64,000 nucleotides of DNA from the IMG/VR virus record IMGVR_UViG_3300021964_007165, positions 1 through 64,000 of that record; one strand, written 5' to 3'. Below the pieces are notes generated by a model that was given only the letters and a program-made list of their open reading frames with translations, searched no databases and was not told the origin of the DNA. Within the stretch, counting starts at the first letter, position 1; the number at the start of each line of letters is the position of its first letter. A program made the position numbers and the translations under genes. This DNA is from a virus. Shown here piece after piece: positions 23,731 to 61,057 of the stretch.

Positions 23731-24269
23731 TTCTTAACTCCGAAATGTTTAAAAGTTGATTGTACACATTTTGCCTGATAGTAACAATCTGCTAATGCAT
23801 TGTGTAGACTTTCTTGTATTGCTTTACGAGGATCTATAGGCATCATACTAAACAAAGTTCTACTATCTCTAATCTGCCAAAAGTTCCAAGGACAAGGTTT
23901 ACCAATATTTTTATATAAATTTTGTAATATCGCATAATCAAACAGCGGACCTTGACACCATAGTTGATCAACACCTACACAAAATTTGTTGATTGCTTTT
24001 GTTAGTGTGTCCATGTTCACACGATCTTCATGATCACCAAATGCTTCGTCTTGTATTTTTTGATCTTGTTTTGTCCACCAAGCAAGGGTATTGTCATCAA
24101 TACTTCTACCATATTTTTCACTTTGTTCTTCTATATCGCAACGCATATACAATCCAGAATGTGGTTCAGAATCGGAATAAGGATCAAACTTTATAGCACC
24201 AAGTGTAATAATTACACTGTCTGGTTCAACACCAAGTGTCTCTAAGTCAATCATTCCGTGTACTGCCAT
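23727..24269 (-). CDS. DEDDh 3'-5' exonuclease
   Basis: MIDLETL, FD, RDSRT, HNALAD. Confidence 0.85.
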   Translation of the reverse strand: MAVHGMIDLETLGVEPDSVIITLGAIKFDPYSDSEPHSGLYMRCDIEEQSEKYGRSIDDNTLAWWTKQDQKIQDEAFGDHEDRVNMDTLTKAINKFCVGVDQLWCQGPLFDYAILQNLYKNIGKPCPWNFWQIRDSRTLFSMMPIDPRKAIQESLHNALADCYYQAKCVQSTFKHFGVKK

Positions 24270-26944
24270 TATTCGTCACCTCCGAAATCAAACAAATTAT
24301 TAAAAGTATTTTTAGTTTTTGTACTTTCTAAATCATAATTAAGAACACCAATCAAGTTATCAAGTTTGTTGTCGATAATCGTTCCCTCCATAGCATCTCC
24401 ATCAAATGGTAACTCCTTAAACCATTGTGGTAAATGCATTTCGTCTACAGGATATGCTACACTGGTGTAACCCATTGGATTCTGTTTTAGTTTACAAACA
24501 ATAACTTTCATACCGTCTACAATCTCTTGCGAGTACTTGTCACCGTTCATACGCTTGAGTGTGTTCCAATTAATACTTGCTCTTACATGCCCTGGCATGT
24601 TTGCTTTACCTTGCTTCTTTTCAAGTCGTTCATAATGTCCAATTTTATTTGCACGTTTAGGTGAACCTTTTTCATGTCCGGGACGTGATTTAAACTCTGT
24701 ACGGAATTCTGTAATACGATTTAAGATACTTTCTTCGCTTTCGAACTGCAATACTTTAAGTAGTAATTCACTTAAAAACTCTTGCATAAACACAGGAGTA
24801 TCACTACGCTTTAGATCAAGACCCATGGCTTTTACTTTACCTGGCTTGCCGTCAACGTCTGTACGTTCGCCTTCGTTATCATAAATTAAAGCCGCATACC
24901 GCTTCTTAGTAATAAACAATCCTGATTCTGCAACAATCTCACGGCCTGCCGCAATAACATCTGTACGACTCTTTGGACAATGAAATGCATCAAGCATAAA
25001 TTTAGGAAATGACTTGTTTGCTTCTGTACATACTTGGTCATACAGTGCAATCACATTGTCTTTACTCCACGGAATATTACCTGCATCAATATCTTTCTTT
25101 AATATCGGATATGCACTAAAATAGCAAGAGTCAGTGTCACCATATATTATTGCTTTACCTACATGATTGTATTCACCTGTAACAACTTTGTTTACTTCTG
25201 CACTCATGTGTTTTACGATCTGTCTACCTGTAAGTGTAGTTGATTGACCAATTCGACCATCAAAGAATCTACAACCTGGATTAAGAATAGCACCATACAA
25301 ACTGTTCAAATTAATTTTTTTAACAAGTTGACGTTTATCCCAAAACTCAATTTCCGCTTTATTTCCTGCATCAATGGCTTTCTTTTTCATTGCCTGCATA
25401 TCCTTACGTTCGCTGTACCAACGTTTAAGTAGTCCAGGGATAACTCCCTCAAACTCGTATGTAAAGATAGTTCCATTAGCACTCATCATCCAAGGATTGT
25501 TACTATCATAGATAATTTTATACACTTGAGCACCACTCATTACATCGCTTTGTCCGTTCTCCCAATCTACAGTTATGCTTACATCTCTACGTTGTTCCAT
25601 AACAGCATCATACTCCATAGTACCAAATCGGCCTTCCCATGCCGCCGCAAATGATTTCTTTTTCAAGTTCATTTGTTCGCCTACATATTTGTTTGTAAGT
25701 TCAGGACGTAGTTGACCTATCACAGTTTCCGGAGCCATGTTTAATGCTCTAATAACAGAAGGATACAGTGAATTTAAGTCCATTGAACCAATCCAACTGT
25801 GTACACCTACTTTTGGAAATGCAACATATGCTCCAGCCGCTGGATCACTACCAGGTTCACGTTGTACTCTATTAGGCACTTGCATACCTCTATGATGTGC
25901 TTCGTTGATAATTGCTTGTTCTGTAACTGCAACAGCACCCATTGTGGTCTGTAGCAAAACAGTATTTGCGTGTGCAAGTTCATTACTAAGATCGATAAAT
26001 CTTAGTTTTTTGTCCAGTTTGTCCAGTAGAGCAACGTCTTGTCGGTTGTACTCAATGAACGTTCTGAAGTCATTGTTATAAAGTTGATCGAGCGTACCTT
26101 CGTACACAGTTTTTCTTTCACCAACTTCCATTTCACCAATGGCATCAAGTCTGTAAGTATGTCTTTCTTCATATGTGTATTTACGATATAATTCCAAACT
26201 ATCTAAATGCACTCTGCCTATTAGGTCATAGGTTTCTTGTTGCCTTCCAAATTTTTCATACTCACGCTTCTTAGGAAACTGATCAAACAAACAAAAACGT
26301 CTGGTATCATCCTTGCTTAATACTTTTGCTACACGGTTAACAGTATAAGGAATATCATAACCTTCACTGTTCCAACCAGTAATAATATCACTATCTTGGA
26401 TTAGATCTAAAAATGTTTTAAGCATATCTGCTTCATCACTAAACAGATGGGTATTTGGAAAATCTTTACATTGTTCTTCTGCTTGTTCCATTGTCAATCC
26501 CTTAGGCGGAACAGCAAGTGTTACAAGAGTATCTAACCATTGCAAATGAACTGAAATAGCAGTAATAGGCATAAACGGATCACTTGGATCAGCAAAGCCA
26601 CGTTCTGGATCAAAATCTGTTTCAATGTCAAAAAATGCAACGTTCAACTTAGGAGCATCGTGATTAAGATAATTTTCACTTAAACACTGGAAGATTGGAT
26701 TTACATCACTTTCGAATAATTCTTTATTCTTGTTAATTGCAAGTTCTTTGCGAAAGTCTTTTGTATTTTTACATACAATTCTATTTAGAGGATCTCCATA
26801 GATACTTTTATATTTTCCTCTTGGGTCAGCATAATAAAAAGTATATTTTACAGGATATTCGGTAAAGTGTCTTTTACCGTCTTTACGTTCTACAACGCGA
26901 ATAATATCAGCATTGCGATCAAAGTGTGCGTCTACATAACTCAT
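24269..26944 (-). CDS. family B DNA polymerase
   Basis: Exo DIET, GWNS..YD; polymerase DLNSLYPS, KINLNSLYG, YGDTDS, KKRY. Confidence 0.95.
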   Translation of the reverse strand: MSYVDAHFDRNADIIRVVERKDGKRHFTEYPVKYTFYYADPRGKYKSIYGDPLNRIVCKNTKDFRKELAINKNKELFESDVNPIFQCLSENYLNHDAPKLNVAFFDIETDFDPERGFADPSDPFMPITAISVHLQWLDTLVTLAVPPKGLTMEQAEEQCKDFPNTHLFSDEADMLKTFLDLIQDSDIITGWNSEGYDIPYTVNRVAKVLSKDDTRRFCLFDQFPKKREYEKFGRQQETYDLIGRVHLDSLELYRKYTYEERHTYRLDAIGEMEVGERKTVYEGTLDQLYNNDFRTFIEYNRQDVALLDKLDKKLRFIDLSNELAHANTVLLQTTMGAVAVTEQAIINEAHHRGMQVPNRVQREPGSDPAAGAYVAFPKVGVHSWIGSMDLNSLYPSVIRALNMAPETVIGQLRPELTNKYVGEQMNLKKKSFAAAWEGRFGTMEYDAVMEQRRDVSITVDWENGQSDVMSGAQVYKIIYDSNNPWMMSANGTIFTYEFEGVIPGLLKRWYSERKDMQAMKKKAIDAGNKAEIEFWDKRQLVKKINLNSLYGAILNPGCRFFDGRIGQSTTLTGRQIVKHMSAEVNKVVTGEYNHVGKAIIYGDTDSCYFSAYPILKKDIDAGNIPWSKDNVIALYDQVCTEANKSFPKFMLDAFHCPKSRTDVIAAGREIVAESGLFITKKRYAALIYDNEGERTDVDGKPGKVKAMGLDLKRSDTPVFMQEFLSELLLKVLQFESEESILNRITEFRTEFKSRPGHEKGSPKRANKIGHYERLEKKQGKANMPGHVRASINWNTLKRMNGDKYSQEIVDGMKVIVCKLKQNPMGYTSVAYPVDEMHLPQWFKELPFDGDAMEGTIIDNKLDNLIGVLNYDLESTKTKNTFNNLFDFGGDE

Positions 26945-28509: not shown

Positions 28510-28932
28510 TTATTCTCCTTTGTAAGCGTCTAAAGTTTTTTGAAACTTACCTGCGTGTGATTTCTCTGCTTTTGCAAGTGTTTCAAACCAATCAGCAATT
28601 TCTTCAAAACCTTCTTCTCTGGCTGTTCTTGCCATACCTGGGTACATATCTGTGTACTCATGGATTTCACCTTTGATAGCAGAAGAAAGATTTTGCTCTG
28701 TATTACCCATAGGTTCGCCAGTTGCTGGATCACCTACTTCTTCTAAGTATTCTAAGTGACCGTGTGCATGACCCGTTTCACCTTCTGCTGTGCTTCTAAA
28801 TACCTGTGCTACTTCATTAGCACCTTCGATATCTGCTTTTTGAGCAAAGTATAAGTATCTTCTATTTGCTTCTGATTCGCCTTGAAATGCGGCTCTTAAA
28901 TTATCTTTTGTTTTGCTGTCTTTTAAGTCCAT
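28510..28932 (-). CDS. rubrerythrin (short form, no rubredoxin domain)
   Basis: [33 protein letters not shown] di-iron ExxH motifs. Confidence 0.9.
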
Positions 28933-28972: not shown

Positions 28973-29001
28973 ATTATATATTCGCTTAAGGTAGAAGTCA
29001 A
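28973..29001 (-). promoter_or_regulatory. sigma70-type promoter TTGACT-N17-TATAAT
   Basis: upstream of the rubrerythrin-to-polB run. Confidence 0.75.
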
Positions 29002-29006
29002 GTGTT

Positions 29007-29603
29007 TTATTGAGACATTGCAAATAAATCAAAATATTTTTTAGTCCACCATTTTTCATTTTCACGACTATCAAATACGATATTTTTGGTAGCAAAATGA
29101 TTTGGCCTTTCGCGATATCTCACTTTAACAGGTCCAGCATCGTGCCAAACATCTGCCTGTCGGTTTAATATAAATCCTCTTGGTGCAGTTGCTCCAAATC
29201 GTTTTTGAAAAGGTAATTGAGCAAAGTCTAAAATCCACTCTGGTGTGACTACTACTTGATGCGTAGCAACCATGCCTCCTTGTTCGTGGTCATTATGACC
29301 AACTTTTGCATTCCAACCTTTTGTAGGATGTTTAATATCTACTTCGTACTGTTTTACGTGTGCTTCAATTCCATGAAGCCTTAATATTCTTCGTAGTGTT
29401 TGTGACAGTAAGATACATTGGTTGCCAATTTCATACAGCATATCCATTTGATACATTCTGCAATACACTGTTACAAGTCTATAATCTAAATTGACAACAT
29501 CTTTACCAACGGCTAAACTATAATCCTCTGGAGCAAGATCCCAGTCTGGATCAAACTTCATAAGCGAGTTAAAGAGTACTCGACCTTGTTCGTCAACGTT
29601 CAT
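29007..29603 (-). CDS. transglutaminase-like (Cys-His-Asp) protein
   Basis: GNQCILLSQTLRRILRLHGIEA...THQVVV...WILDF; GGAGG RBS. Confidence 0.55.
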   Translation of the reverse strand: MNVDEQGRVLFNSLMKFDPDWDLAPEDYSLAVGKDVVNLDYRLVTVYCRMYQMDMLYEIGNQCILLSQTLRRILRLHGIEAHVKQYEVDIKHPTKGWNAKVGHNDHEQGGMVATHQVVVTPEWILDFAQLPFQKRFGATAPRGFILNRQADVWHDAGPVKVRYRERPNHFATKNIVFDSRENEKWWTKKYFDLFAMSQ

Positions 29604-29661
29604 TGTGTTCCTCCACAGTTAAACTTTTCGTTAACAATGAATGAACTGAACAAACTGTAAC

Positions 29662-29753
29662 GTCACCTTATGTAAAATAGTAACCTCTGTTTTGTCACCA
29701 GCCGTGTCGTACGCGAGCACTGTCACCAAAAGTAGGCGTTCCTATAAGTCACC
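29662..29753 (-). repeat. four GGTGAC direct repeats separated by short hairpin-forming spacers (candidate structured RNA leader)
   Basis: GTCACC on + strand at 29662, 29694, 29722, 29748, plus variant GTAACC at 29680. Confidence 0.6.
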
Positions 29754-29776
29754 GTCAATCAGTATTAACGTATAGA

Positions 29777-29783
29777 TATTTAT
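29777..29783 (-). promoter_or_regulatory. T4-late-like promoter core ATAAATA
   Basis: directly upstream of the GGTGAC repeats. Confidence 0.5.
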
Positions 29784-29793
29784 GATATTACAA

Positions 29794-30348
29794 TCAACTT
29801 GATAGTCGTTGTGATACTTTACTAACCAAGTACTCTAAAGATACGTCAGACCAAATATTATGTTCTTGTGCCTTATAATCGTATATAGGCATAATGCTTT
29901 TCATTTCAGGAATAAATTCTTTAGTAATTAAGTTTCCGATATATAAAGATTCATTAAACTTAGTTTCGTCACTTAGCGTAACGTCAAACAAAGTTGGACC
30001 ATTAAACATTAGGTGTTCGAATTCTACTGTATCTTTTGCTTGTATTTTTATTGGAAAAGGTCTTTGGATTAGTTCTTTTCCATTCCAAGTGAACAATGGA
30101 ATTTTAATAGGTTGATCAAATGTTACTTTGCCTTTCTTACCATTGATAATTGCAGGGTAATCTACTAAACATTTTTCTAAAGTAAGTGTACCTTCGATAA
30201 CTTCGATACGTACACTGTAACTGTCGTGTACAGTTGTTTCTGTTTCAAACTCGTAAATTAAATTTGCAGTGCATGATTCTTCTAATTTGTTGTTTATGAA
30301 AACTCTATATACAGCATCATCAGAGCCGTAAACTTTTAACTTCCGCAT
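29794..30348 (-). CDS. hypothetical protein
   Basis: 184-aa ORF with RBS. Confidence 0.6.
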   Translation of the reverse strand: MRKLKVYGSDDAVYRVFINNKLEESCTANLIYEFETETTVHDSYSVRIEVIEGTLTLEKCLVDYPAIINGKKGKVTFDQPIKIPLFTWNGKELIQRPFPIKIQAKDTVEFEHLMFNGPTLFDVTLSDETKFNESLYIGNLITKEFIPEMKSIMPIYDYKAQEHNIWSDVSLEYLVSKVSQRLSS

Positions 30349-30383: not shown

Positions 30384-31034
30384 TTATGTGTCGAGAGTCT
30401 CGTCTTTTGACTTGTATGCCCATTCGTCTGTGTGTCCTACACTCCACTTAGGTGTATTTTCAACTGTATAGTTTTGAGTGCATACTTTAAAGTCTGGAGT
30501 AAGTCTATCTGGATTTACAAGACTTTGATCTGTGAATACTACTCTATTGTTTGGTTGTGCGGCAAATTGTCCATTGTCTAATTTAATGATATTAAAAGTT
30601 TTGTGTTCAGGATCATGCTCGCTAAAATTAATATCAAGTGTTGAGTGTTGTGCGTGACAAGTATCAAGTGTAAACATATATTCACCCTTGTGCATCTTTC
30701 GGTCCTTGCCAAAGAACTCGCAGTCGCTGAGCATTGGCTTTTTGATCACTGTGATGTCATAGTCAAAGCAGTCCCATATCTGTAGAGTGTCAAGAGGAAG
30801 TTGATTGTCCTTATCATAATCTTCTTTCCACACAAATGCTGAGATGGGTAACTTGTCATATAGTGCGCCATACTCTAATAATAATGTTTCAAAGTACAAT
30901 GCTTTTGATTGTATACTTCTAATGCTTATCCAAGTGCCAGGTGTGAGTTCACCGTGTCCTTTTTGATGATCGTAGAGATATTCTTTTTTTACATATACTT
31001 CAACAGGTGGTAGATTATGCACTAAGAAAGCCAT
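30384..31034 (-). CDS. hypothetical phage protein
   Basis: 216-aa ORF, GAGGA RBS, ATAAATA at 31064-31070. Confidence 0.75.
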   Translation of the reverse strand: MAFLVHNLPPVEVYVKKEYLYDHQKGHGELTPGTWISIRSIQSKALYFETLLLEYGALYDKLPISAFVWKEDYDKDNQLPLDTLQIWDCFDYDITVIKKPMLSDCEFFGKDRKMHKGEYMFTLDTCHAQHSTLDINFSEHDPEHKTFNIIKLDNGQFAAQPNNRVVFTDQSLVNPDRLTPDFKVCTQNYTVENTPKWSVGHTDEWAYKSKDETLDT

Positions 31035-32633: not shown

Positions 32634-34415
32634 CTATTTACCTTTTTTACCGCCCTTCATGTTAGCACACCAGTGGTACATTTTGCCTTTTTCACCACTG
32701 TATTTACGGGCCTTTGCTCTTAAACTACTTACTGATCCTTTGCAACTTGCACCTGCTTTTTTGACTCTTCCTGGTTTACTTTTGCCCTTCTTCTTGCCAT
32801 CCGCAAAGTTTTCAGTTATATTTTGAACATAATCATCAACCATGATAACACGAGCCATGTCTTTACCTTGTGTAGCAAGTGCATCATATCTATGATGCCC
32901 GTTGACTATTCTTCCTCTACGATCAACTACGATTGGTTCGTATGTATCTTCACGTACTCTCTTATATTGTTTTGTAAGTTTGCCAAAGTCTCTATCTTTT
33001 TGAACAGGCTTAATATTTGACAATTTCATTACACCTTGTTTGCCGTCTATATTCTTGCCTTTGATTTGTGGTGGCGGATTACCGTCAGTAGGTTCTGGAT
33101 CATAATTATGATCTTGATATCCACTTACATCACCTAATGAATATCCTAAACGTTTTAAATTTTTAACCATATGCTCGGCTTCTTTTTTGCCTCCAAAAAA
33201 GTTGATGTAAATATCTTGATCACCCATATTAACATTATCTTTGTCAACAGATTGCACATTTGCCATGTTGCGGCCTATTTTCATAAAGTCGTAATCTGTT
33301 GCATCACTATCAACTGCTACACTATTTTTTGGTAGTGGAAGTAGATCGCCTTCGTTGGCTTTGAAGTCTGATGAAAATGCTTTTTTATCACCTTTGGCCG
33401 CCGCGGCTCTTCTTGCTTTTATTTTATCTGCTACACTTTGTTCCTCTGGTGGACGTTTCTTCTTAATAGTTGCACGTTTAGGACTGCGACCAATAGTGAA
33501 TCCCATAATTTCATTTGTATCTTCTTCTGCTGGTTTTGTAAAATAATCTTTTAGATTTGAAGCCGTTCTTTCAAACTTATGATCCTTATGCTTGAATCCT
33601 ACACCACCTGCGCCTTCCCACTTACTAACATTTTGACCAAAGTCGTCAATTAATATGTTAGGAGTGCCATCTGGATTTTTTGCATATGCTTGTTTATCTG
33701 TAGTAATAATAACTTTCTTAGGAGGAAAAGCACTCAAGTTTTTCTTTACCCATTCACGTTTGTGTGGCTCTGCTCTATCATCATTTGCCAACGGAGCAGA
33801 TAGGATATTATATTCTCCTTTAATATTTTTAATTATACCTAACAATTTATCAGCATTTGCTGTCGGTTTTAGTTTAAGCCAAAAGTCATCTGTATCTCTA
33901 ATCTTTTGCAGTGCTTGGTCAACATTCTTAATTTGTTTCCAGTCGCTAACACCCATCATTTTAGTCCAAGCACCAAAGAAGTCTACCAGTACCCCATCCA
34001 TGTCAACGTAAATTTCTGAATCGCTTGAAAGTTCTTTACCTTTTAATTCGTTAACTTGACTTTCTTTTGCCATTTTAGTTGCTGTTGCATACATAACTGC
34101 TTCAGCATCTTTGCCGTAACGGTCTTTAAAATCGCCCTTAGACTTCTTCATACCTTTAACGTATTTTTCTTTTTTCTTTTCTTCGCCTTTAGTTAATGAA
34201 CGTTCTTCAACGCTTTCCGCCATACCTAAATTAAATAATACGTTTGTTTTAGAACCTTTTACCTTTTTGCTTAGTGTAGGCGGACGTCCGTCTTTGTCTA
34301 CAGTGTTTCCAAATTTTGCGGCTTGTTTTTTAATAGCATCAACGCCAACATCGGGTGTAGTATTAACACCCTTTACAACACGACCACCATTTTCTTTTAT
34401 TTCGCTAAACTTCAT
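32634..34415 (-). CDS. multidomain protein: 5'(3')-deoxyribonucleotidase-like HAD + ParB-like domain + small basic modules
   Basis: IYVDMDGVLVDF...ILIDD...W...GG.G; EPIVVD...IVNGHHRY.AL. Confidence 0.75.
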   Translation of the reverse strand: MKFSEIKENGGRVVKGVNTTPDVGVDAIKKQAAKFGNTVDKDGRPPTLSKKVKGSKTNVLFNLGMAESVEERSLTKGEEKKKEKYVKGMKKSKGDFKDRYGKDAEAVMYATATKMAKESQVNELKGKELSSDSEIYVDMDGVLVDFFGAWTKMMGVSDWKQIKNVDQALQKIRDTDDFWLKLKPTANADKLLGIIKNIKGEYNILSAPLANDDRAEPHKREWVKKNLSAFPPKKVIITTDKQAYAKNPDGTPNILIDDFGQNVSKWEGAGGVGFKHKDHKFERTASNLKDYFTKPAEEDTNEIMGFTIGRSPKRATIKKKRPPEEQSVADKIKARRAAAAKGDKKAFSSDFKANEGDLLPLPKNSVAVDSDATDYDFMKIGRNMANVQSVDKDNVNMGDQDIYINFFGGKKEAEHMVKNLKRLGYSLGDVSGYQDHNYDPEPTDGNPPPQIKGKNIDGKQGVMKLSNIKPVQKDRDFGKLTKQYKRVREDTYEPIVVDRRGRIVNGHHRYDALATQGKDMARVIMVDDYVQNITENFADGKKKGKSKPGRVKKAGASCKGSVSSLRAKARKYSGEKGKMYHWCANMKGGKKGK

Positions 34416-37270: not shown

Positions 37271-37288
37271 ACAACTATTTATCTAAAT

Positions 37289-60616: not shown

Positions 60617-61057
60617 TTATAGCGCCGCTATCCTTGTTTGGAAGTCAGCAAAGTCTATACTTGCCGCTACCTCTGTTTTTAATGTTGCTAAACTAACATA
60701 TCCTGGTATTGTGCTATTCACACCATCTACTAATAGTGTGCTGTCATCACCGAATACACTGCCAGTGATATCACCATCAACTGTACCTGTATGTGTTCCT
60801 ACTGTATTGTTGTTAAGTGTTCCGCTGATTACTGCCGCTGGAATGATAGCATTAACAGCATCAACTAAGAGCGTTGAATCATCTGCAAAAATGCTTCCTT
60901 GCGTATCCTGTACTTGTGCAATTTGTCCATTTTCAAGAACAGTAACTTTACCATAAAGTTCTGTAAAATTATCATTGACTTTGCCAAACGCTGTGCGGAT
61001 TGGATCACCGTCTCCTTTGTTAGCACTTGATCCAATGTTTATAGTTCTTTGTGCCAT
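60617..61057 (-). CDS. baseplate/tail protein (gp9/gp10 N-terminal-like) with GS(I/V)F.DDSTLLVD repeats
   Basis: NIGSSANKGDGDPIRTAFGKVNDNFTELY. Confidence 0.7.
   Translation of the reverse strand: MAQRTINIGSSANKGDGDPIRTAFGKVNDNFTELYGKVTVLENGQIAQVQDTQGSIFADDSTLLVDAVNAIIPAAVISGTLNNNTVGTHTGTVDGDITGSVFGDDSTLLVDGVNSTIPGYVSLATLKTEVAASIDFADFQTRIAAL

Follow-up and report, generated by a model that had tools for sequence, protein, structure and literature searches.

A conserved, strand-specific structured RNA module before unrelated genes and within tRNA clusters of marine and estuarine phage contigs

What does a phage with closely packed genes keep in a 190-nt gap that seems to encode nothing? The question is raised by positions 29604–29793 of the window, a stretch of 64,000 nt (positions 1 to 64,000 of IMG/VR virus record IMGVR_UViG_3300021964_007165) whose genes lie on the minus strand. 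The record is 79.9 kb long with a CheckV completeness of 23 %, implying a very large genome. A first-pass annotation had described the gap as a promoter followed by four GGTGAC repeats and several hairpins, in a genome with almost no intergenic space. The last description holds only roughly: by crude calling, ORFs account for 90 % of the window, and 16 gaps exceed 100 nt. The features at the outset are the following.

29604–29793: the gap, between the ORF at 29794–30348 (phrog_23688) and the 198-aa ORF at 29007–29603
29777–29783, minus strand: ATAAATA core of a late-type (T4-like) promoter, assigned from the strand and position bias of the motif
29007–29603, minus strand: 198-aa papain/transglutaminase-like Cys-His-Asp protein, assigned from invariant residues and AlphaFold/Foldseek results

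The gap, its promoter signal and its repeats

ATAAATA occurs 13 times on the coding strand of the window and not once on the other strand, and 11 of the 12 remaining copies sit 12–40 nt before a start codon, giving the proposed promoter the profile of a genuine promoter-type signal. The copy at 29783 is the outlier, as it lies 180 nt before its start codon, and the leader would therefore be ~150 nt longer than is the norm for this phage. In relatives whose upstream gene differs, homology sets in precisely at CATAAATA, i.e. at the promoter. By analogy with T4 late promoters, we place the predicted transcript start near 29771. The gap is spanned by contigs of three RNA libraries, among them an oligo-dT library (29578 to 29819), while a fourth library yielded contigs only over the adjacent upstream gene; such contigs do not establish transcription, strand or transcript ends, and DNA carry-over is possible in RNA libraries. 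We found no terminator or defined 3′ end after the repeat-bearing segment and, as a weak negative, no terminator-like minus-strand sites downstream, between 20 and 36 kb. Minus-strand (G)ATAAATA sites were recorded at 60620, 55097, 52518, 51147, 44953, 42045, 37282, 36629, 31070, 29783, 8196 and 2834; the one at 37282 begins 12 nt before an ATG, from which a leaderless or nearly leaderless mRNA would result.

The four GGTGAC repeats are on the minus strand exactly where they had been reported (29753–29748, 29727–29722, 29699–29694 and 29667–29662; spacing 26, 28 and 32 nt). Both strands of the window together hold 25 copies of the hexamer against a shuffle mean of 15.5. In 92 nt, ~0.02 copies are expected, and by our own estimate the Poisson probability of four on one strand is ~1e-5 or less after correction for all windows of this size. 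Since the remaining minus-strand copies all fall inside ORFs (19/19), the cluster in the gap is not a chance occurrence. No ORF in the gap is conserved, with 1-nt indels separating relatives, in agreement with the annotation, which had seen no credible one. A 32-codon ORF with a TTG start (29631–29729) and a possible 17-codon uORF after the last repeat were both rejected, since 1-nt indels break their frames in relatives. A possible role of GGUGA as a Shine–Dalgarno (SD) mimic was also unsupported, as GGTGA lies upstream of the start in 3 of 80 genes and no usable start follows the repeats.

Several observations indicate that the 198-aa product is a papain/transglutaminase-like enzyme. It belongs to a small family (16 clusters at 90 % identity), and a comparison of 16 homologs showed no variation at residues C63, H115 and D126. 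Its AlphaFold model (pLDDT 85) finds its best Foldseek match in 2hly, an uncharacterised structure, with weaker matches (E 0.1–0.5) to the SseI and PMT deamidase domains (the latter being the C3 deamidase domain of the Pasteurella toxin), arylamine N-acyltransferase and cathepsin B. The protein returned no Pfam or PHROG match. The invariant Cys-His-Asp residues and the papain-like predicted fold are consistent with the original call of a transglutaminase-like gene.

Structure of the repeat-bearing RNA

We collected and aligned 15 distinct variants of the element from marine and estuarine phage contigs. The alignment points to one irregular hairpin, the rod, with the following parts.

29658–29757, minus strand: rod, an irregular hairpin of ~100 nt (covariance model R1, alignment A5)
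29748–29753, minus strand: repeat R1, GGUGAC, facing R4; variants GGUAAC, GGUGAAC and UUACC
29722–29727, minus strand: repeat R2, GGUGAC, facing R3; variants GGUAAC and GUGAC
29694–29699, minus strand: repeat R3, GGUGAC, invariant in 15/15 variants
29662–29667, minus strand: repeat R4, GGUGAC, invariant in 15/15 variants, within the block AAGGUGACGUU and retained in loci L009 and L010
29707–29716, minus strand: apical stem-loop UCG-CGUA-CGA, its stem invariant save for one broken pair (A.A) in locus L162

From base to tip, the predicted rod comprises the helix P_out (UGACG/CGUUA), the R1×R4 loop, CUUAU/AUAAG, GCCU/AGGU, UUUUG/CAAAA, the R2×R3 loop, CAGU/GCUG and UCG-CGUA-CGA. When applied to the unfitted alignment, RNAalifold forms a covarying helix (U-A, U.G, C-G, A-U) from the U-run that precedes R2 and the A-run that follows R3, and it also joins R2 and R3 at both ends, the first G of each to the last C of the other. 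These end pairs bring R2 and R3 face to face, leaving a symmetric 4×4 loop, 5′-GUGA/5′-GUGA, that could potentially stack as G.A, U.G, G.U and A.G. Around R1 and R4, UGAC pairs with GUUA on the outer side and UUAU with AUAA on the inner side. In the L162 lineage, the inner helix (P_in) changes in compensatory fashion from UUAU/AUAA to UUUG/CAAA, UUUUG/CGAAA or UUUG/CGAA, and helix P1 likewise from UUUU/AAAA to AUCU/AGAU; the P1 series runs through U-A, U.G and C-G. In the apical region, all substitutions other than the broken pair are confined to the loop or the adjoining internal loop. These comparisons show that, in the predicted RNA, the repeats appose pairwise (R1 with R4, R2 with R3) as symmetric GUGA/GUGA loops, with G-C pairs closing them and covarying helices on either side; credit for the loops as such comes from geometry and from the covariation on their flanks.

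In locus L129, R1 is replaced by UUACC, the Watson–Crick/wobble complement of the GGUGA in R4, and a G to A change in R2 turns a G.U pair with R3 into A-U. Judged from the aligned variants, R1 and R2 drift only toward kept or better pairing, whereas R3 and R4 are fixed; the 3′ copies thus have the look of the functional sequence and the 5′ copies that of their partners. The segments between the repeats are as conserved as the repeats, and the unpaired nucleotides are almost fully conserved. Three conserved G.U pairs in the rod make the structure specific to the gene strand.

In 0.84 Mb of loci, a covariance model built from the proposed rod structure (model R1) picked up every copy and gave no other hit. 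In an alignment fitted to that model, 97.2 % of the rod cells are paired against 24–54 % in slid controls, and five pairs against none have changed on both sides, with the covariation drawn from about five lineages. RNAalifold on its own recovered only the apical half, while the basal part was present in the minimum free energy (MFE) fold of 7/7 variants folded. Folding energy did not go beyond that of shuffles, either for the gap (z = −0.27) or for the rod (z = 0 to +1). Rfam 15 returned no match on the element in the window at E values up to 10, nor in five other variants at E values up to 1, and the flanking tRNAs were detected in the same run.

This architecture revises the hairpins proposed at first pass, in which the repeats separated individual stem-loops; instead, the repeats oppose one another in pairs on the two arms of a single long hairpin. 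The TAGG-AACG-CCTA hairpin and the pairing of the third repeat with GTTACT both exist in the sequence but are not kept in relatives. The GTG-c-TCG-CGTA-CGA-CAC hairpin also exists, and its UCG-CGUA-CGA part is kept, but its GUG-c-UCG fold reaches −5.3 kcal/mol, against −8.1 kcal/mol for the rod fold of the apical domain in the same frame and −8.7 kcal/mol for the MFE of that domain. The covariation check that had been suggested for homolog leaders was run with RNAalifold and the covariance model, and the helices covary. The idea of a leader RNA is upheld in so far as the gap appears to be non-coding, strand-specific and structured and lies behind a promoter signal, and a protein-binding or processed RNA is still the leading idea. 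A k-turn, a bulge-helix-bulge, a T-box and a CsrA site were considered and dropped, as the loop geometry or the motif did not fit.

Occurrence of the element

In 11 IMG/VR loci, homologs of the 198-aa gene at 91–96 % aa identity have the same leader. Protein homologs were also found at 77–80 % and 54–57 % identity; the leader is retained, nearly unchanged, at 57 % and is missing at ≤39 %. The leader is thus conserved upstream of homologs, which the annotation had made the test of its proposal, and under a constraint above that of the gene. Between the window and locus L129, the element has 87 % nt identity and the gene 65 % nt and 56 % aa identity; between loci L149 and L155, the element has 94 % and the gene there 69 % nt and 64 % aa identity. 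The leaderless distant homologs mark the long leader as a clade-specific acquisition. In the homologs of loci L133–L137 (~39 % identity; e.g. L135:2067-2504), the ATG overlaps the upstream stop (TTAATG) and there is no leader, and the distant homologs in L136, L139 and L140 abut or overlap the upstream ORF.

Loci L009 and L010 carry a shortened leader (L009:2406-2449; the same sequence as in L145 and L147) with a clean 69-nt deletion that includes R2 and R3. Exactly the apical two thirds of the rod are gone, leaving a clean basal hairpin, while R1, R4, the long-range strands described below and the gene (91 % aa identity) are kept.

Scans with conserved blocks of the element revealed further contexts.

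Before a 136-aa ORF: loci L149, L153 and L155
Before a 212-aa ORF: loci L177, L187 and L190
Between same-strand tRNA genes: loci L162, L210 and L214
Between a late-type promoter and tRNAs: loci L180 and L198

Homology between genomes extends from the promoter to just after R4, with differing flanks: six distinct left flanks and five distinct right flanks were counted, including same-strand tRNAs. No protein flanking the element returned a Pfam family. Three records of 47–80 kb (13–23 % complete) each hold a single copy. On this comparative evidence, the rod is an autonomous RNA module rather than a leader specific to the papain-like 198-aa gene, as it is better conserved than its neighbours, precedes three unrelated gene families, lies inside tRNA clusters and occurs once per record. 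The tie to a transglutaminase-like gene that the first-pass annotation had drawn does not survive these contexts, nor the absence of the leader from homologs at ≤39 % identity. Taken with the structural comparison, the distribution shows a conserved, strand-specific, predicted structured RNA module that is mobile between contexts and absent from Rfam.

Wider searches returned no further members. A BLASTn search of the element against 50,697 phage records gave no match, and model R1 found nothing significant in Sinorhizobium phage Phosso, Agrobacterium phage Atu_ph07, Pelagibacter phage Mosig, the tRNA region of T4 (68–75 kb) or a related 146-kb record. Collection scans for three spaced GGTGAC motifs and for a ‘mini-rod’ each yielded almost only Gly-Asp coding repeats and no new members. 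A metagenome scan gave 45 hits, of which about 30 were chance matches in high-GC coding DNA, with no new context, and a scan of prokaryote genomes gave 10 hits, none significant by the model (E ≥1.5), which we took as chance. DNA runs holding the gap region are labelled as estuary, seawater, marine and soil metagenomes. The carriers of the element are a clade of uncultured marine or estuarine T4-type phages, probably jumbo phages.

Predicted coupling to translation and competing explanations

Three further features bear on how the rod might be connected to the gene that follows it.

29753–29770, minus strand: hairpin H0, CGUUAAU-ACUG-AUUGACG, present in MFE folds, at the 5′ end of the predicted transcript
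29628–29645, minus strand: post-rod stretch UUCAUUCAUUGUUAACGA, holding the anti-SD strand and complementary to the transcript 5′ end (29754–29771)
29607–29646, minus strand: predicted SD-sequestering hairpin, with the SD GGAGGA at 29609–29614 and a GUUAAC...GUUUAAC stem

The GTTAA...TTAAC hairpin reported before the ribosome-binding site thus reappears as part of the SD-sequestering hairpin. H0 recurs, with a different loop on the same stem, in L162-type and L177-type copies and is absent from L149 and L155. Its 3′ strand, UGACG, has an alternative partner in the CGUUA after R4, and its 5′ strand has one in the post-rod stretch; in H0-containing leaders, the UGACG held in H0 is predicted to compete with the basal helix of the rod.

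RNAduplex assigns −13.2 kcal/mol to the pairing of the 5′ end with the post-rod stretch, a value equalled by 0/500 shuffles. Such complementarity is present in 7/7 leaders from three unrelated gene contexts (−8.5 to −13.3 kcal/mol, shuffle p ≤0.026), and in all seven its target overlaps the anti-SD strand. The tRNA contexts have neither this complementarity (p about 0.6) nor an SD-sequestering hairpin. Across seven leaders of the 198-aa gene, 98 % of the cells of the long-range helix are paired against 16–58 % in slid controls, and one pair is compensated (A-U to G-C, in three sequences). The post-rod hairpin is predicted to bury the SD in every mRNA context, and in two contexts the AUG as well, while the anti-SD strands have no sequence relation to each other across contexts. 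The probability that the SD is paired is 0.77–1.0 in six of seven leaders (0.54 in that of L007), with 0.77 for the leader in the window and 0.97–1.0 for four others, as compared with a mean of 0.40 for 37 other genes of the window, only one of which reaches 0.8. Freeing the SD would cost a predicted 3.5–12.5 kcal/mol, suggesting that the default state is mostly closed, and the transcript 5′ end is always helical in the predicted folds. As in a riboregulator, the SD is sequestered by a local helix in these models, and mutually exclusive pairings are predicted to link the flank of the rod to the expression platform.

Our tentative reading, to which we give slightly less than an even chance, is that the gap is the 5′ leader of a late transcript in which the portable rod acts as sensor or clamp of a bistable translational leader. 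The model is built on thermodynamic predictions and on the presumed transcript start. In the closed state, the 5′ end would fold locally into H0 and the hairpin after the rod would sequester the SD. In the open state, the rod would be fully formed and the 5′ end would pair with the anti-SD strand, extending the base of the rod and freeing the SD and AUG of the 198-aa gene. Stabilisation of the rod by some agent, most likely a protein with affinity for both of the equivalent GUGA/GUGA loops, would thus turn translation on. Loci L009 and L010 count against this mechanism, as their rod lacks the apical two thirds. The copies in tRNA clusters have no translation to act on, which requires of the rod some further function outside the switch; these copies point to a free small-RNA form as well. 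A more general and rather unlikely possibility is a plug-and-play switch, in which one sensor rod is free in tRNA operons and is inserted before arbitrary genes, where custom flanks convert it into a translational activator. The rod would then present two equivalent GUGA/GUGA sites to one (probably dimeric) phage or host protein, the 5′ strand, anti-SD strand and SD would have evolved anew for each gene, and folding or binding of the rod would bring about activation.

The proposed switch has partial counterparts in known systems. In classic mimic operators (thrS and tRNA-Thr; ribosomal-protein leaders and rRNA), binding of the regulator represses translation. By analogy, the element may present one RNA shape both free, in the tRNA-cluster copies, and in mRNA leaders that control access to the SD, although the geometry here suggests activation rather than repression. 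In the T4 genes e, soc, 49 and I-TevI, inhibitory hairpins hide the SD and/or AUG at initiation regions, and the late promoter lies inside the hairpin, so that late transcripts lack the 5′ strand and the SD is relieved (PMC3014915). The likeness to these genes lies in a late-gene SD held in a local hairpin, with translation set by RNA conformation or by the transcript. Here, however, the late promoter is ~170 nt upstream, and the transcript would carry both strands, a competing 5′ strand and a 100-nt rod.

One conserved RNA that is present in tRNA clusters and forms the core of leaders with SD-sequestering platforms makes a compact candidate for further work. Three of its features are unusual, namely the apposition of a hexamer with itself into symmetric non-canonical loops, the contrast between invariant 3′ and drifting 5′ copies and the apparent re-evolution of the flanks in each context. 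If confirmed, it would be a new RNA family, possibly with a new RNA–protein recognition motif, and a modular, transferable regulatory domain. Should the plug-and-play switch prove true, it would be the first riboregulator family for T4-type phages, with a sensor domain mobile between genes; if the rod is merely a structural or stability element, it would still be of use in marking where cassettes join in these genomes.

The evidence can be read in other ways. A stand-alone, trans-acting small non-coding RNA, unlikely in our estimation, would have the rod, with or without H0, as its product, made from its own late promoter or excised from tRNA precursors, to bind or titrate a protein or RNA, and its position before genes would reflect incidental read-through. 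The gene-like, single-copy character of the unit and its conservation above its neighbours fit such an RNA, as do the copies between same-strand tRNAs or between promoter and tRNAs, a position held in T4 by RNAC and RNAD, small stable RNAs of ~100–140 nt encoded in the phage tRNA cluster on the tRNA strand (PMC3014915). The likeness is one of a small structured RNA placed in a tRNA cluster on the tRNA strand; model R1 has no match in T4, rnaC folds differently and includes a tRNA-like T-arm, and the element is also an mRNA leader. The missing terminator or defined 3′ end behind the rod speaks against this explanation, which also gives no reason why both flanks show context-specific complementarity to the anti-SD strand wherever the element lies in an mRNA. 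This reading and the switch are compatible. Improbable, but deserving mention, is a portable RNase III-type site for processing or stability, where the rod would be cut or would cap the 5′ end, separating tRNA precursors and maturing or stabilising late mRNAs. The rod would suit this role as a lengthy, irregular duplex interrupted by internal loops and placed between cistrons or in tRNA operons, and so would the helical 5′ end of the predicted transcript. Against it, the near-total conservation of unpaired nucleotides exceeds what a duplex-specific nuclease would need, each record holds one copy rather than many, and, as a weak negative, a search of four fragmentary phage records, covering 13–40 % of their genomes, revealed no RNase III domain.

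We consider very improbable an antitermination RNA resembling the put RNAs, which would modify RNA polymerase in cis from a promoter-proximal position and act on whatever follows. In HK022, put RNAs are ~70 nt long, lie just downstream of promoters, need no protein factors and consist of two stem-loops that bind the β′ zinc-binding domain of RNA polymerase (PMC9378689). The element resembles them as a promoter-proximal, highly conserved structured nascent RNA with highly conserved unpaired bases that is independent of downstream genes and also found in tRNA operons. It has one rod instead of two stem-loops, however, and no similarity of sequence or architecture to put was found; in addition, no terminator-like minus-strand site was seen downstream between 20 and 36 kb, the L162 element is not beside a promoter and late T4-type transcription runs on a modified polymerase. 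A feature acting as DNA, with no RNA function, seems if anything slightly less probable still; it would be a homology patch for cassette shuffling or, as the first-pass annotation had proposed as its alternative, a set of protein-binding iterons or operators. Against it, the conserved G.U pairs and compensatory changes have meaning only in RNA of this strand, intervals of 26, 28 and 32 nt show no helical phasing, conservation is as strong in the spacers as in the repeats, and each record has one copy. PeSLs, to which the patch would correspond, are short composites of terminator and early promoter with many copies per genome. The element, by contrast, has a late-type promoter, a length of ~100 nt, one copy per record (in records 13–23 % complete), no terminator-like site and RNA covariation. 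What the two share is their position where gene cassettes have been exchanged among related T4-type genomes: PeSL cassettes are conserved intergenic promoter and stem-loop units at gene-swap junctions of T4-like phages (PMC2839356, PMC4122927), and inter-genome homology here likewise begins and ends at the element with both flanks swapped. Recombination at such a patch may be a side effect. Finally, a type III antitoxin RNA neutralising the downstream enzyme, a likeness that had been drawn loosely, from repeats that precede an enzyme gene, is so improbable as to be negligible. ToxI is a tandem array of 36-nt units cut by its own toxin, an RNase. The element shares with ToxI/ToxN a repeat-containing RNA upstream of an enzyme gene but is not tied to that enzyme, since element without gene and gene without element both occur. 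Its 6-nt motif lies within a single hairpin, with no tandem unit, no repeat units of ≥30 nt and mutually unrelated intervening segments, and the downstream protein has a papain-like rather than a ToxN-type predicted fold.

Genomic neighbourhood of the gap

The family-B DNA polymerase of the window (24269–26944) has ≤50 % aa identity to that of any cultured phage, with the jumbo T4-related phages Phosso and Atu_ph07 among those compared. The rubrerythrin gene (28510–28932, minus strand) has 86 % nt identity to a gene of Pelagibacter phage Mosig and is preceded by a near-consensus sigma-70-type promoter (28973–29001, minus strand; TTGACT-17-TATAAT, 11/12 matches). A Mosig-like rubrerythrin beside so distant a DNA polymerase may reflect a shared host or gene exchange. 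Upstream of the gap, a 593-aa ORF (32634–34415, minus strand) combines a 5′-deoxyribonucleotidase (NT5C) domain with a C-terminal stretch matching ParB-like PHROG families. A 216-aa ORF (30384–31034, minus strand) has ~70 % nt identity to a cyanophage gene whose public labels conflict, being given as a purM fragment, a ferredoxin or a hypothetical protein (phrog_3704).
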